A stretch of DNA of 64,000 nt. Source: Minisyncoccia bacterium. Lineage in GTDB: Bacteria; Patescibacteriota; Minisyncoccia; Phycocordibacterales; Phycocordibacteraceae. The notes under the pieces are model-generated. The model searched no databases, had not been told where the DNA came from, and saw only the letters and a program-made list of their open reading frames with translations. Positions 8,429-14,000 of the stretch are shown here, in pieces. The stretch is from assembly GCA_038228545.1 (NCBI GenBank), contig JBBRPE010000001.1, forward strand, positions 110,924 to 174,923, in the 5' to 3' direction. The position numbers and the translations under genes were made by a program. Position 1 is the first letter of the stretch; each line of letters starts with the position of its first letter.

Positions 8429-9331
8429 TTACGAGGAACGCGGTCGGTCGAGGAGTTTTTGGACGGCCGCAGTGACAATCGGAAGCATGTCGTCATAGAA
8501 GTTCAAATCGAGTATGTCGGGAAGACGGAACCACTTTGCATCATCGAGTCCACCGCTTTTTTTAAGCGTTAGCGTTTCAAACTCCGTCGAGACTAGGAAG
8601 AAATACACGTGCTTGCGTATCTTTCCCTTTTCCGGATGCGAGGCGACATATTCGTTCTCGCCAATCTGGTCTTCTACTTTGACGTTCATAAGCCCAAGCT
8701 CTTCGCCCACAACACGCGCCACGCCCACTTCCGGAGTTGGGTCTCCTTCTATATGACCCTTTGAGAGCGTCCAGCGCCCGAAGATGTCATGCACCAGCGC
8801 GAGGTAGTACTGGCCATCATGGAGTGCGTACACGATTGCGCCACCAAGCTTTTCAAGAGGAAGGTCTTCGCGCTTCACACGATCCTTCTTCCCTATCTCG
8901 TCTTTACCCGGTTCACCGAGCTCTTTGTAGACCGCACCGAGAACGCCGTTTACGAAACGACCCGAAGAGTCACCGCCGAATACCTTTGCAAGTTCAATTG
9001 CTTCGTTTATAGCTACCTTTGCCGGTACCTGCGTACGGTCAGCAAAAAGAAGTTCATAAAGCCCGATACGGAGTATGTTGCGATCAACTGGCGCAATCTT
9101 ATCGAGCGGCCAATCAGGCGCGGCTTTCTCAATGACCATATCAAGGTCGGGCTTTTTGGCGAGTACGCCATCGAGGAGAGTTTTCATAAAAGGCTGGTCG
9201 GTATCATCGCCGCCGAACTCGTCGACGTTGCGTGCGAGCATTTCTGCTGCACCTTTTGCGTCGGCACTAGTTGTGTCCCACTCAAAGAGTGTTTGCAAAA
9301 CTACCGAACGTGCTAGATGCCTGTTGGCCAT
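8429..9331 (-). CDS. nusB: NusB antitermination domain fused to a C-terminal NUDIX-like hydrolase domain
   Basis: N-terminus RHLARSVVLQTLFEWD...NRILRIGLYELLF...AINEAIELAKVFGG...FVNGVLGAVYKEL (NusB); C-terminus GHIEGDPTPEVGVARVVGEELGL (degenerate Nudix box); 300 aa versus ~140 for NusB alone. Confidence 0.75.
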   Translation of the reverse strand: MANRHLARSVVLQTLFEWDTTSADAKGAAEMLARNVDEFGGDDTDQPFMKTLLDGVLAKKPDLDMVIEKAAPDWPLDKIAPVDRNILRIGLYELLFADRTQVPAKVAINEAIELAKVFGGDSSGRFVNGVLGAVYKELGEPGKDEIGKKDRVKREDLPLEKLGGAIVYALHDGQYYLALVHDIFGRWTLSKGHIEGDPTPEVGVARVVGEELGLMNVKVEDQIGENEYVASHPEKGKIRKHVYFFLVSTEFETLTLKKSGGLDDAKWFRLPDILDLNFYDDMLPIVTAAVQKLLDRPRSS

Positions 9332-9554
9332 ATGAAAGAGCTGTATGAGTAGGATACCCTACTTTGGAAAAGTGCATTGCACTCATGCAATGCATCATGT
9401 GTATATCGAAAGGAAACAAAACGGAGAAAATCGAAACGGAACGAGTACTCCGCGAAAGCACGCTGTTCCGAAGACAGAGTAGTTTTGCGCAGAGTCGAGA
9501 AGAACTATCCCGACTACTGAAGCGCTTTAGGGATAGTTCGATATGAGACGACAA

Positions 9555-9582
9555 CGCAAAACCCGACATCTGAGTGTCGGGC
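9555..9582 (-). terminator. Rho-independent terminator after rpmF
   Basis: Minus strand: hairpin CCCGACACUCAGAUGUCGGG followed by UUUUG. Confidence 0.55.
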
Positions 9583-9612
9583 TGTGTGCTTTCTCGGAGT
9601 GCGAGTGGAGCG

Positions 9613-9975
9613 TTATACGCCCCCGCCGAAACCGGAACGTGACTTTGCCTTTCCGAGAGTCATGCGTCCGATAAGTCCCTGCTTCTTTTCACGTTCCTCT
9701 GTTGCCGTGTGCTTCTCGGGAGTCATGTTGGTGTTCGCTGCTTCTACCTTGTCGTGCTCCTTCTTTGCCTTGTCTTTCTTCTTCTGTTCAACTGCTTTCA
9801 CTTCCTTCTTGGAAACGATTTGAACGCCACGGTACATGCCCGTAGTCTCATCGATGCGGTGCGGAAGACGGAGTGCTCCGGACTCTTTGTCGACAACGAC
9901 GTTAGTCCCCGCAAGCGCATGGTGGCTGCGGCGGTTCTTGGTGTGCGAACTGGTGTGGCGCATTCGTACTGACAT
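9613..9975 (-). CDS. rpmF: 50S ribosomal protein L32 with long K/E-rich C-terminal extension
   Basis: From ATG 9975: MSVRMRHTSSHTKNRRSHHALAGTNVVVDKESGALRLPHRIDETTGMYRG matches L32 pattern (RRSHxAL...DK.SG...HR...GxYRG); ORF track N-terminal extension disregarded. Confidence 0.8.
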   Translation of the reverse strand: MSVRMRHTSSHTKNRRSHHALAGTNVVVDKESGALRLPHRIDETTGMYRGVQIVSKKEVKAVEQKKKDKAKKEHDKVEAANTNMTPEKHTATEEREKKQGLIGRMTLGKAKSRSGFGGGV

Positions 9976-9989
9976 AGTGGGAATACCGT

Positions 9990-10335
9990 ACCATATGGCC
10001 TTATATATGGCTAGAGCACCCCTTTTCCTTGTTATACGGCCCAGATAGTGCAAGGATTACTAGGTCGCCTTTGTGTGCTGAGCGGGACCTCAGCCGGGCG
10101 ATAATCCGAACGGTCTCTACGACCTTGTACCAATCCGGAATTTTTGGGAAATACCGGATGCACATCCAACAGAATTCCATGAACGTTTCTGCTGCTCGCC
10201 GCAAGGGGAGCAAACGAAAACGGGCCTGGCCGTACCGTCGAGATGGGTAGCTTAGCTCTATGAGCTGCCTCACAACCCGCGCCACCCAGGCGCACACACA
10301 GTCCTAATCTCGGAACATCTGTTCTTGACCCTGGA
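9990..10335 (+). ncRNA. Candidate non-coding RNA of unidentified family, ending in a strong terminator
   Basis: ~390 nt without convincing ORF between divergent rpmF start and rnhB stop; plus-strand intrinsic terminator at 10336-10370; internal hairpins such as ATCCGG..CCGGAT. Confidence 0.3.
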
Positions 10336-10370
10336 CGGGGCCGCCGCGCAATCGGCGGCCTTTCCCTTTT
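10336..10370 (+). terminator. Plus-strand rho-independent terminator
   Basis: GGCCGCCG-CGCAAT-CGGCGGCC followed by TTTCCCTTTTCGTTATT; no U-run in minus orientation. Confidence 0.5.
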
Positions 10371-10372
10371 CG

Positions 10373-10963
10373 TTATTCCTTTTCGTCCAGATGCAGAAAG
10401 GTCATACGATGTAGTTCACACGGGCCATGCTCACGGAGCGCTTCATAGTGCTTCTTGGTTCCGTATCCTTTATGTATATCGAATCCGTACAACGGATAGT
10501 CGAGTGCGAGTTTTTTCATAAGCCGGTCGCGCGTTACCTTGGCCGCGATAGATGCAAGCATAATGGCCGGAACGAGACCGTCGCCACCAATGATTGTTTC
10601 TTGTTCGTATTCCGGTGGAGCCTTGAGGGAACCGTCGAGATACACCTTTCCCTCTTCGGGATTCGGATGGAGTTTGCGTACACCGCGCCAAAGTGCACTT
10701 TTCACGGCAGGCGCAATGCCGCCCGCATCAATATCTTTCGCAGACACCAGTTGCACTACCGCCTGCACGGTTCCCTTTTTTATTTCTTCTTGAAGAAGCG
10801 CGAAGAGTACTTCGCGCTTCTTTTCTGAAAGCTTTTTCGAATCATTAAGGCCCGGAAACGCAGACTCAAAATCAAACTCTTTTGTGACGCGAATGACACC
10901 AACGGCAACCGGGCCAGCGAGCGGTCCACGACCAGCCTCATCAATTCCAATCAGGTACGACAT
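10373..10963 (-). CDS. rnhB: Ribonuclease HII
   Basis: MSYLIGIDEAGRGPLAGPVAVG...; start at ATG 10963 (ORF track extension to 11119 would overlap dnaE start region). Confidence 0.9.
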   Translation of the reverse strand: MSYLIGIDEAGRGPLAGPVAVGVIRVTKEFDFESAFPGLNDSKKLSEKKREVLFALLQEEIKKGTVQAVVQLVSAKDIDAGGIAPAVKSALWRGVRKLHPNPEEGKVYLDGSLKAPPEYEQETIIGGDGLVPAIMLASIAAKVTRDRLMKKLALDYPLYGFDIHKGYGTKKHYEALREHGPCELHRMTFLHLDEKE

Positions 10964-11015: not shown

Positions 11016-14000
11016 ATGACGAAGAGCGTACCAAATAGTCCCGAGATACTAGGCACGGGTGAGCTTGCGAGCGAGGCGTATAGCAATACGGTGAGCGAGA
11101 AAGCTGGGGCCCGCAACAACGTAGATGGGGTCGATTTGAAACGTTCTAAATTCGTACACCTCCATACGCATTCCCACTACTCCTTCCTTCAGGCACTACC
11201 GAAAGTGCCCGCTCTCGTGAAGGCGGCAGTAGCGGCTGATATGCCGGCACTTGCGCTTACGGACGTGGCGAATCTCCACGGTGCCGTGGAGTTCTACCAG
11301 GCGTGCGAGAAAGCGAAGTTAAAAGCGATTATCGGCGTGGATACCTATATTGCGCAACGTTCGCGTTTTGATAAGAATCCGGGAGACGAGGGAAAGCGTT
11401 CACATCTCGTTCTTCTTGCGGAAACGAATGAGGGCTATCGAAACCTTATGGTGCTCGTCACGAAAGCTTTCACCGAAGGCATGTTCGACAAGCCACGTAT
11501 CGATAAAGAGCTCTTACGCGAACACAAAGGCGGACTTATCGCTCTGATGCCGTCTTTCGCAGGAGAAGTCGCGCAGTATCTCAAAGCCGGAGACGTGAAG
11601 GGAGCCGGAGCCGCACTGGCTGAATACGTCAGCATCTTTGGAACAGAAAATGTGTTCCTTGAAATTACCCACCACCCGAAAGTCGATGGGCACGAAAAGC
11701 GCATGGAACAGATTAAAGAGCTTTCGTTACAGTCCGGTATTCCACTTGTCGCTCAACATGACGTGTACTACCTGAAGCCCTCCGACCGCGAAGCAACTGA
11801 GGTCATGCGTCGTATTGCGCACGGCTCAGAAGGTCGTAACGAGGAAGAGGATTTCTCATTTGTAAGTGAGGAACAGATGCGAAAGTGGTTCAAGGACATA
11901 CCCGACGCGGTTGACCGTTCCGGAGAAATTGCTGAGCGCTGTACCGTCACTATGGAGCTCGGGAGCTGGAACTTCCCCGCTGTTGAAACGGAGCCCGGCA
12001 AAACGCATGAGCAGATGCTCCGTGAACGCACGTATGGAGGACTCAGCATGCGCGGTATGGAAAAGACGGACGTTGTTGAAAAACGCATCGAATACGAGCT
12101 CGATGTCATCATCGGTAAGGGCTTCGCTCCCTACTTCCTCGCCGTGTCTGACCTACTCACCTTTGCGAAGAGCGAGGGTATTTTGACGACAACTCGCGGC
12201 TCAGCGGCTGGTTCGTTGGTGTCGTATCTCACGGGTATCACAAACGTTGACCCGCTTTTCTACAAGCTTCCATTCGAACGCTTCCTCAACCCCGAGCGCC
12301 CCAAAGCGCCTGATATCGACATGGACTTCGCTGACAACAGACGCGACGAGATGATTGCGTATGCAAAGCGTAAATATGGCGAGGATAAGGTTGCGCAGAT
12401 AGGCACCTTCGGCACCATGATGGCGCGTGCCGCCGTGCGCGACGTCGCGCGAGCTCTCGGGCATGCGTATAGGACCGGCGACCAAATTGCGAAACTCATA
12501 CCACTCGGTAGTCAGGGTTTCCCGATGACCATTGAACGCGCGCTTGAACTTGAGCCAGAGTTAAAACTTCTCTATGACCAGGATGACGACGCACGCCAAG
12601 TCATCGACCTTGCTCGTCAAATGGAAGGCTGTGTTCGCCATACCGGTGTGCACGCCGCGGGTGTCGTAATTGCACCGACGCCACTCACTGACTGGACACC
12701 GCTTCAGGTGGACCCGAAGACCGGCAAACTTATTACGCAGTACGACATGCATGCGGTGGAAGATGCGGGTCTTCTTAAGTTCGATTTCCTCGGCATTAAG
12801 AACCTCGCCATTCTCTCGGACGCCATTGCGCGCGTACAAAAAGACCGCGGCATCTTTATTGATATTGAAAACATTCCGATAGACGACGCAAAAACGTTTG
12901 CCATGCTCGCGCGCGGTGAGACGGAAGGTACATTCCAACTCAATGGCTCCGGCATGACGCGCTATCTGAAAGAACTACAGCCGACTTCGATTCATGATAT
13001 CAACGCGATGGTGGCGCTCTATCGCCCTGGTCCGATGGAAACGATTCCGCAATATATTGAGCGCAAGAAAAATCCGAAGCTTATCCGCTTCCTGGACCCA
13101 CGCATGGAAGACTACCTCGATGCATCCTACGGGCTCTTGGTGTATCAGGACGATGTGCTCCTGACTGCCATCAAACTTGGAGGCTACTCGTGGCTTGAAG
13201 CCGACACACTCCGTAAGGCTATGGGTAAGAAGATTCCGGCGGAGATGGAAGCGCAGAGAGAAAAACTTCTAAAAGGGTTCCAGGAGTTCGGAAAGATTTC
13301 AAAGGAGAAGGGCGATGCACTCTGGAAGCTCATTGAGCCGTTCGCTGCGTACGGATTTAATAAGGCCCACGCTGCCTGCTACGGCAAGGTTGCCTACCAA
13401 ACCGCCTACATGAAGGCTAATTACCCAGTCGAGTATATGGCGGCGGTGCTTACTGCGGATGCCGGTGACACGGAAAGCATCGCGACATTTGTTGCCGAGT
13501 GCGAACGTATGAAGATTCCCGTGCTTCCGCCAGACGTAAACGAAAGCGGTAGCGATTTCACGGTGGCAGGAGAAAAAGGCGACACGATTCGTTTCGGACT
13601 CACGACGATTAAGAACTTCGGCGAGGGAATCTCCGAAGCACTCCAGACCGAACGGACAAAGAACGGTCCCTTCACCGACCTGTCTGATTTCCTTTCGCGT
13701 ATTTCGTCCCGTAACCTCAATCGCAAATCACTCGAGTGTCTTATAAAATCAGGGGCGCTCGACCGATTTGCGGACCCGACGGGCGGACGCTCGCACCTTA
13801 TGAGTCACATCGAAACACTACTCACCTTCCACAAGGACGCCACAGTAGAAGCCCCACAAGATTCGCTGTTCGGTGCAGGGCTCTTTGCAGCTCCGAAGCT
13901 CACACTTCCTGCGGCAGATGTTTCGACAACACTATCCGACAAACTCGCGTGGGAAAAGGAGTTGCTTGGTATTTACGTATCCGGCCATCCACTCGATAGC

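Follow-up and report, generated by a model that had tools for sequence, protein, structure and literature searches.

A candidate structured RNA with a conserved mini-ORF between rpmF and rnhB in one clade of Parcubacteria

The 64-kb stretch of DNA analysed here (the window) belongs to a genome of the Parcubacteria (Paceibacterota), and the best matches of its rnhB lie in metagenome-assembled genomes of Parcubacteria, with identities of at most 80 %. On the minus strand of the window, rpmF (9613–9975) and rnhB (10373–10963) are separated by a gap of 397 nucleotides (nt; 9976–10372), which an earlier note on this DNA had described as an ORF-free, non-coding RNA (ncRNA) unit of about 390 nt with a strong plus-strand terminator. 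On balance we lean towards the reading that the gap holds an independently transcribed structured RNA of ~305 nt, which is at the same time the mRNA of a translation-gated small open reading frame (sORF), and which would represent a new family, found in one Parcubacteria clade, of the dual-function small RNA (sRNA)/small-protein kind. Because a conserved AUG in one of its hairpins (H3) opens a frame of 28–47 codons in every homologue, the element is better described as an sORF-bearing structured RNA (a small-protein mRNA or a dual-function RNA) than as a plain ncRNA. The independent plus-strand unit of the earlier description is thus upheld by a promoter-like element in 16 of 17 homologues, by covarying helices and by terminators, whereas its non-coding, ORF-free character gives way to a 30-codon sORF whose AUG is found in all 17. 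The parts of the gap, in window coordinates, are as follows.

9985–10013, minus strand: rpmF promoter, not part of the unit; –35 TAGCCA (10008–10013), 17 nt, TGG-TACGGT (–10 at 9985–9990).
10029–10057, plus strand: promoter-like element; –35 TTGTTA (10029–10034), spacer of 17 nt, –10 AAGGAT (10052–10057).
10063–10370, plus strand: proposed transcript of ~305 nt, with a predicted 5′ end and with the U-tract of the terminator as its 3′ end.
10063–10102, plus strand: hairpin H1; outer stem GUCGCC/GGCGAU, inner stem GCUGAG/CUCAGC, apical loop CGGGAC (10083–10088).
10112–10124, plus strand: hairpin H2; GGUC-UCUAC-GACC.
10133–10160, plus strand: hairpin H3; AUCCGG/CCGGAU, purine-rich loop GGGAAAUA, with the AUG (10158–10160) at the 3′ foot.
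10158–10250, plus strand: sORF of 30 codons plus UAG, reading MHIQQNSMNVSAARRKGSKRKRAWPYRRDG.
10215–10235, plus strand: most conserved block, CGAAAACGG-N6-CCGUAC, forming a small hairpin (ACGG/CCGU) inside the sORF.
10245–10270, plus strand: stop-codon hairpin of 10 base pairs (bp), three of them G-U, with the UAG (10248–10250) in its 5′ arm.
10279–10325, plus strand: 3′ region; GCGCC/GGCGC (10279–10293), conserved CACAGUCC (10297–10304), GGAAC/GUUCU (10312–10325).
10337–10370, plus strand: intrinsic terminator; GGGGCCGCCG-CGCAAU-CGGCGGCCUU plus UCCCUUUU.

The spacer was compared among relatives, in which loci are designated by L numbers. Searches with nhmmer and with profiles recovered L081 and L004 as collinear over the full length and L002, L006, L003 and L005 in part, and further members were found on contigs encoding close rnhB homologues (L161–L165, L167–L170 and L172–L175). 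The resulting set comprises 17 sequences including the window, which in our judgement represent about 12 lineages. In the 16 other loci, all from one Parcubacteria clade, the unit is collinear, lies at the same site, always divergent from rpmF, and carries the terminator hairpin in the same orientation. The alignment shows that L001 and the loci found by nhmmer possess a unit of ~300–400 nt beside rpmF with a hairpin terminator in the plus orientation of the window, and unit length ranges from 298 to 399 nt among the first eight homologues. The order rnhB then rpmF is a conserved arrangement with a gap of 5 nt to more than 1 kb across relatives; the unit itself is missing at the syntenic position in most Parcubacteria, varies far more than the flanking genes, and is present as a single copy in the 64-kb window, in which no paralogous copies were found.

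The frame opened by the homologous AUG is uninterrupted in all 17 sequences, with lengths of 30, 30, 40, 39, 38, 44, 45, 35, 33, 47, 34, 35, 36, 36, 38, 35 and 28 codons, while 27 and 22 stops interrupt the other two frames across these spans (1.3–1.6 per span). Since about 1.4 stops are expected per span and yet some 12 independent lineages are all open, which is very unlikely to arise by chance, we take the sORF frame to be under selection. The most conserved block is identical in the window, L081 and L004 apart from the variable 6-nt loop, and CGAAAACG recurs in the same reading frame in L002 and L167. Gene callers have called the sORF in L004, L172, L162 and L164, the products of the first two being listed as proteins in public data (P0122 and P0124), and a profile search of the protein database recovered no more than four called copies. 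The peptides share weak features, namely an M-x-x-x-x-N start, a basic patch and a [DE]-[YP]-G or D-[GS] end; comparison with Pfam, NCBIfam and PDB sequences gave no match.

The closest pair of homologues reveals what has been conserved. L004 and L172–L175 are 94.3 % identical over 3.1 kb; in nusB, rpmF, rnhB and dnaE of L004 and L172, 132 of 809 third codon positions (16 %) differ, compared to 1.2 % of the first and second positions, and the whole spacer differs by 4.4 %. Within the sORF, none of the 40 third positions has changed, and five first- or second-position changes together with an indel of one AAG repeat unit are confined to ~20 nt. Three of these five fall in a small hairpin, altering GCCU-GAG-GGGU to ACCC-GAA-GGGU; two of them turn wobble into Watson–Crick pairs, and the third lies in the loop. 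The four changes in the 3′ untranslated region all belong to two double substitutions at facing positions of predicted hairpins (U.U to C.C and U.G to C.A), which are classical isosteric exchanges in rRNA. The absence of third-position changes, set against 16 % in the neighbouring genes, therefore indicates that the constraint acts mainly on the RNA and on the open frame. As judged from these substitutions, the RNA fold is the main object of selection, along with the open frame and the fixed AUG, and the peptide drifts almost freely.

Such nucleotide-level constraint would equally be expected of a purely non-coding structured RNA, whose function would lie in its fold (binding or sequestering a protein, for instance), and whose AUG and open frame would arise as by-products. 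This alternative is also favoured by the identical codons CGA AAA CGG and CCG UAC across divergent species, by the last sense codon, which covaries with codons 3–4 as an RNA helix, by the unconserved peptide chemistry and by the scarcity of Shine–Dalgarno (SD) sequences in the genome. It does not readily account for a homologous AUG that opens 28 codons or more in every member of the set, for an AUG that is invariant within a helix whose neighbouring pairs vary freely, or for the canonical AGGAGG located 4 nt before the AUG in L163. We consider a purely non-coding RNA possible, but doubtful.

The internal hairpins mentioned in the earlier note are borne out. The whole spacer folds more stably than its dinucleotide shuffles, the z-score being –3.24 on the plus and –2.47 on the minus strand; for the segment 10063–10370 it is –3.18. 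Both stems of H1 covary: the outer one becomes GUCGUCC/GGACGGC in L004, GUUACG/CGUAAC in L002 and GCUGCCG/CGGCAGC in L163, the inner one CCUAG/CUAGG in L002, CCGG/CCGG in L006 and CCAG/CUGG in L167, and an apical loop of the form NGGGAC/CNUGAC is kept in approximately 11 of 17 homologues. H2 covaries as well, its place being taken by GGCC/GGCC in L081 and by GGGC/GCCC in L004 and L172, with variable loops. In H3, A(+1) of the start codon is paired in 14 of 15 scored homologues and U(+2) in 13 of 15, while 30 of 32 cells at positions –1 to –3 are paired compared to 15.3 in shuffles, a test that is inflated by the kinship of the sequences, although the compensatory changes are still plain in them. 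Position –1 alone occurs as four pair types (C-G, G-C, U-A and A-U), with the AUG invariant.

Further pairings surround the end of the frame. In most homologues a hairpin starts at or beside the stop codon, such as GCUAGUUCC-UUCG-GGAACUAGC in L001 and GCUAGC...GCUAGC in L163. According to RNAalifold, the window type pairs codons 1–4 of the sORF with the last codon and the stop, two of the pairs being compensatory, whereas in the L001 type the stop region pairs with a segment of the 5′ untranslated region, GCUGGCUCAU, and GUUC pairs with GAAC just before the terminator; compensatory pairs are present in both subtypes. The last hairpin of the 3′ region is replaced in place by GAGCCC/GGGCUU in L081 and by GGGU/GCCC in L004. 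The subtypes have no definable conserved single-stranded seed in common.

The polarity of the unit follows from several of these features. Seven homologues carry a U opposite the G of the AUG, and because such G-U pairs would become A-C mismatches on the minus strand, the covarying helices fit the plus strand only. The terminator hairpin (10337–10362) consists of 10 bp, eight of them G-C, with a 6-nt loop and the tail TCCCTTTTCG, and its reverse complement is devoid of a T-run; the strong, plus-strand-only terminator of the earlier note is thus confirmed. It ends 3–10 nt from the stop codon of rnhB on the opposite strand. The hairpin is found at the same place and in the same orientation in all homologues; the window, L004 and L003 types have a good U-tract, the L001 type a poor one.

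The earlier note had also considered that, in the minus orientation, the gap could be a long structured 5′ leader of rpmF; more generally, it could be a leader or the 3′ untranslated region of rnhB within an rnhB–rpmF operon. The two genes are indeed adjacent and co-oriented across Parcubacteria, and the minus strand, too, folds better than shuffles. However, in some relatives the genes are only 5–80 nt apart, without such a leader, and rpmF possesses a –10 box of its own, 9 nt before its ATG (9975), in a geometry that matches that of –10 boxes near the ATG of other genes in the same genome. The motif ATGGTA(A/C/G)GGTA beside rpmF is conserved in nearly all relatives as part of the rpmF-proximal ~40 nt. 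In addition, L003, L005, L006, L165 and L167 contain a separate minus-strand terminator between a Cys-rich protein gene and the unit, which are both present there and convergent. Together with the one-sided terminator and the A-C mismatches, these features make a minus-strand element very improbable.

On the plus strand, a promoter-like motif (TTGnnn-N16–18-nAnnnT) occurs in 16 of the 17 homologues at 96–133 nt before the AUG and 5–8 nt before H1, whereas minus-strand matches to it within the unit are at scattered positions. The first ~90 nt of the interval would accordingly be read not as transcript, but as a pair of promoters, back to back, that serve rpmF and the plus-strand unit, and the ~390 nt proposed earlier would shrink to a transcribed part that is probably ~305 nt long (10063–10370), with its start placed at the foot of H1 from promoter geometry. 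An alternative –10 (TGT-TATACG, 10030–10038) would move the RNA start from near 10063 to near 10045.

A short frame followed by a terminator also brings to mind a leader-peptide attenuator, in which translation of the sORF would decide on terminator formation and so control a downstream plus-strand gene. A frame that stays open while its peptide drifts is typical of regulatory leader ORFs, and the 3′ end of the sORF can pair with a segment just before the terminator. There is, however, no target gene: beyond the terminator the plus strand is antisense to rnhB or, in L003-type loci, faces the convergent Cys-rich gene, and dnaE (plus strand, start at 11016) is preceded by a –10 box of its own. 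Attenuation is therefore very unlikely to be the function of the unit.

How the AUG within H3 may be used has to be viewed against translation initiation in the host. Among 42 long ORFs of the window, an SD core (GGAG, GAGG or AGGA) 3–12 nt upstream was found for one, compared to a background of 8.9 %, and a TAnAnT box ending 4–12 nt (mode 6) before the ATG for 12, compared to 1.3 %. The genome thus looks largely leaderless and SD-poor, and the scarcity of SD sequences and the presence of –10 boxes at start codons both bear on the use of an AUG located in an internal hairpin. The pattern is exemplified by the following start codons.

7379, 48117, 36539, 46734, 45851 and 53690, minus strand: example ATGs.
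11016, plus strand: example ATG (dnaE).

Taken together, the favoured sORF-bearing RNA would work as follows. An independent plus-strand gene, divergent from rpmF, may be transcribed from a sigma-70-type promoter at ~10029–10057, and transcription would end at the intrinsic terminator (10337–10370), which abuts the convergent rnhB. H1 would form a 5′-terminal stem-loop and likely serve as a 5′ stabilizer, while H3 would offer a purine-rich, SD-like loop and keep the AUG in its 3′ strand. Access of ribosomes to this AUG could be gated by H3 and by the pairing of the start and stop regions, so that the RNA would be a translationally controlled small-peptide mRNA or a dual-function small RNA, for which the fold and the passage of ribosomes through the frame may count more than the sequence of the peptide.

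Several observations weigh against this interpretation. The substitution pattern is not protein-like, as the sORFs of L004 and L172 differ by four nonsynonymous codons but at none of the 40 third positions, which is the opposite of a normal protein gene, and translation is suggested indirectly, by the open frame and the invariant AUG. Peptide chemistry is not conserved, with a net charge of about –2 to +15 (counted by hand from the sequences), and hydrophobic peptides are limited to L003 and L006, that of the window having no hydrophobic stretch. Since the genome almost never uses SD sequences, the SD-like loop of H3 may mean nothing here. The –10 box of the window unit (AAGGAT) is weak, and both the transcription start and translation are predictions from sequence. 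Helices were scored on per-sequence folds, aligned partly by hand, instead of by a covariance model, because MAFFT alignments of all homologues are inconsistent with structure and are unreliable for the distant members. Finally, metagenome and genome scans returned no relative of the window closer than ~80 %, and look-ups of the exact rpmF and rnhB proteins of the window found nothing on record; as the window has no close relative, claims specific to it depend on L081 and L004.

A sequestered start codon in a highly folded mRNA is also reminiscent of type I toxin–antitoxin modules, in which the structured mRNA would silence a toxic peptide under the control of an antisense RNA, possibly supplied by read-through from the convergent rnhB, which lacks a minus-strand terminator. 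The window sORF, at 30 codons, lies below the limit of 60 codons set for such mRNAs, and below 50 as well, its AUG and SD-like loop are placed in a hairpin, and long-range pairings exist both in the L001 type and, between start and stop, in the window type. The patchy, lineage-restricted distribution and the fast turnover of the peptide fit this picture, as do the peptides of L003 and L006, which consist of a hydrophobic helix followed by a charged tail. The window peptide MHIQQNSMNVSAARRKGSKRKRAWPYRRDG, like most others, has no hydrophobic, membrane-active stretch; inside the unit there is no positionally conserved antisense promoter or terminator, and one copy is present in 64 kb. Pfam and NCBIfam gave no match, PADLOC and toxin libraries being outside this search. 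A toxin–antitoxin function is in our view improbable.

The unit could, in principle, be a very divergent housekeeping RNA (RNase P RNA, transfer-messenger RNA (tmRNA), 6S RNA or signal recognition particle (SRP) RNA), as RNase P RNA and tmRNA are of roughly similar size and RNase P-like words had been pointed out in the earlier note. The only Rfam report at the gathering score was a tRNA in another part of the window; at E ≤ 10 on 9900–10450 and at E ≤ 5 on seven homologous loci it returned terminator look-alikes only, and ARAGORN found no tmRNA in the window. The RNase P-like words (GGGAAAUACCGG and ACAGAAUUCC) are next to each other (~10 nt apart) and are conserved in neither L081 nor L004, so that this suggestion falls away: neither a P4 helix built from conserved region (CR) I GAGGAAAGUCC and a distant CR-V ACAGAAnnCGGCUUA nor a covariance model match was found. 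A tmRNA was rejected for want of a tRNA-like end and of Rfam or ARAGORN matches, the 3′ hairpin being a 6-nt CGCAAU loop on a stem of 8–10 bp and not a T-arm, and a tmRNA-like tag reading (ANENG...LAL*) was discarded because L004 has no stop in that frame. SRP RNA and 6S RNA had no Rfam match, and in place of a rod with a bubble the predicted fold shows short hairpins in series; the exclusion of 6S RNA rests partly on this shape, 6S models being known as insensitive. With the patchy occurrence and variability of the unit added, a housekeeping RNA is extremely improbable. The RNA is thus no recognizable relative of RNase P RNA, tmRNA or SRP RNA, and as it matches no Rfam family, the label 'unidentified' of the earlier note is justified. 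Literature searches returned nothing relevant.

A degraded yceD/DUF177 gene, or another protein gene on the rpmF strand, was likewise rejected, since the minus-strand ORFs (98 and 87 amino acids) are not conserved and their alignment to L081 and L004 requires indels whose lengths are not divisible by three; the ORFs of the interval had already been judged implausible in the earlier note. An inverted form of the element in relatives with an rpmF-proximal terminator was also dismissed, as nhmmer found nothing on either strand and a protein of ~80 amino acids is encoded there instead. In IMG/VR, a 16-nt match to the inner stem and loop of H1 (CTGAGCGGGACCTCAG; contig L176, 8543–8558) was judged to be due to chance, the contig being of high GC content with no rnhB or rpmF nearby.

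In more distant relatives, the site is occupied by a Cys-rich protein gene, by a gene for an acidic protein of ~125 amino acids, or by nothing. The Cys-rich gene encodes ~70–85 amino acids, is SD-led, lies on the strand of rnhB and rpmF, and has its own terminator just before rpmF; its product has no Pfam match and evolves fast (for example ...ALLKAGFKACVQKGNACTCSS...), with mismatches of 19, 13 and 37 by codon position between L007 and L014, and it is absent from the window. The acidic protein (...DPELAERVVALYSSVDETLNELRVPDEERKEVEQNLMEAIAADLLVRLGE...) is well conserved, occupies the same gap in another subclade and has no significant Pfam hit. A gene with an NTP_transf_6 domain (PF06042) lies between dnaE and rnhB, overlapping the start of rnhB, in some close relatives and is not found in the window.

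L007 and L014, 4595–4969 in each: Cys-rich protein gene.
L006, 4601–4930: Cys-rich protein gene.
L165, 2233–2490: Cys-rich protein gene.
L168, 2267–2482: Cys-rich protein gene.
L003 and L005: Cys-rich protein gene, also present.
L008–L010, L013, L017 and L021, first ~380 nt after rnhB: gene for the acidic protein of ~125 amino acids.
L161, 1032–1646, and L162, 1020–1634: NTP_transf_6 gene.

On the other side of rpmF, the window encodes a fusion of nusB with a NUDIX hydrolase domain (8429–9331, minus strand; 300 amino acids). The rpmF product itself, of 120 amino acids, combines an L32 core of ~60 amino acids with a long Lys/Glu-rich C-terminal extension. The spacer between rpmF and nusB (9332–9612, minus strand) contains the terminator of rpmF (CCGACA...TGTCGG and a T-run, ~9548–9582) and a second terminator-like site at 9453..9436. 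Between L004 and L172 the homologous spacer has an identity of 97.8 %, against a divergence of ~16 % at synonymous sites, and this spacer may hold another small conserved element.

The genomes of the candidate phyla radiation (CPR)/Patescibacteria are very compact, and to our knowledge almost no regulatory RNAs or small proteins have been described in them. A conserved folded RNA with a gated mini-ORF beside the gene of ribosomal protein L32 would be among the first such elements in these bacteria, and it is one to which annotation pipelines are blind, having no Rfam hit and an ORF of less than 50 codons. A bolder proposal, which we hold to be rather unlikely, is that the family exemplifies a new class of translated structured RNA, in which the frame is kept open and the AUG is locked in a covarying hairpin, while the peptide drifts neutrally and the passage of the ribosome is the signal. 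If true, such an RNA could sense the status of translation, or serve as a ribosome-dependent switch that sets its own stability or controls the convergent rnhB by antisense action.

Among known systems, the unit shares features with four kinds. Start-codon operator hairpins, such as the replicase operator of phage MS2 and RNA thermometers, are likewise short, with the AUG on their 3′ side, the purines that ribosomes bind in or close to the loop, and a stem that covaries while the AUG is fixed; H3 is not known to bind a repressor protein or to respond to temperature, and it is only one module of a larger RNA. As in tmRNA, a structured RNA of ~300–400 nt includes a short internal frame, with its stop codon inside a hairpin and with a peptide that differs from species to species, but the unit has no tRNA-like domain, CCA end or Ala resume codon, and its frame starts with AUG.

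Type I toxin mRNAs, of which hok, aapA1, fst and tisB are examples, resemble it in carrying a small ORF in a highly folded mRNA of 300–400 nt, in placing the start codon and an SD-like element in a helix, in long-range 5′/3′ pairing, and in a patchy distribution with a fast-evolving peptide. In contrast to them, the window unit encodes a strongly basic peptide that is not hydrophobic, it is single-copy, and no gene for an antisense RNA was found. Dual-function sRNAs are represented by Staphylococcus aureus RNAIII/delta-hemolysin, Bacillus subtilis SR1/SR1P and Escherichia coli SgrS/SgrT. The unit has no sequence or Rfam kinship to them and no identified target-pairing seed, its peptide is far less conserved than SgrT or SR1P, and its host is a largely SD-free Parcubacterium with a reduced genome. 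What it has in common with this class is a stand-alone arrangement of a few hundred nt, in which a predicted promoter and intrinsic terminator of its own enclose a short transcript, as well as many hairpins, an internal ORF of a few dozen codons, and a nucleotide constraint that goes beyond the needs of the peptide.

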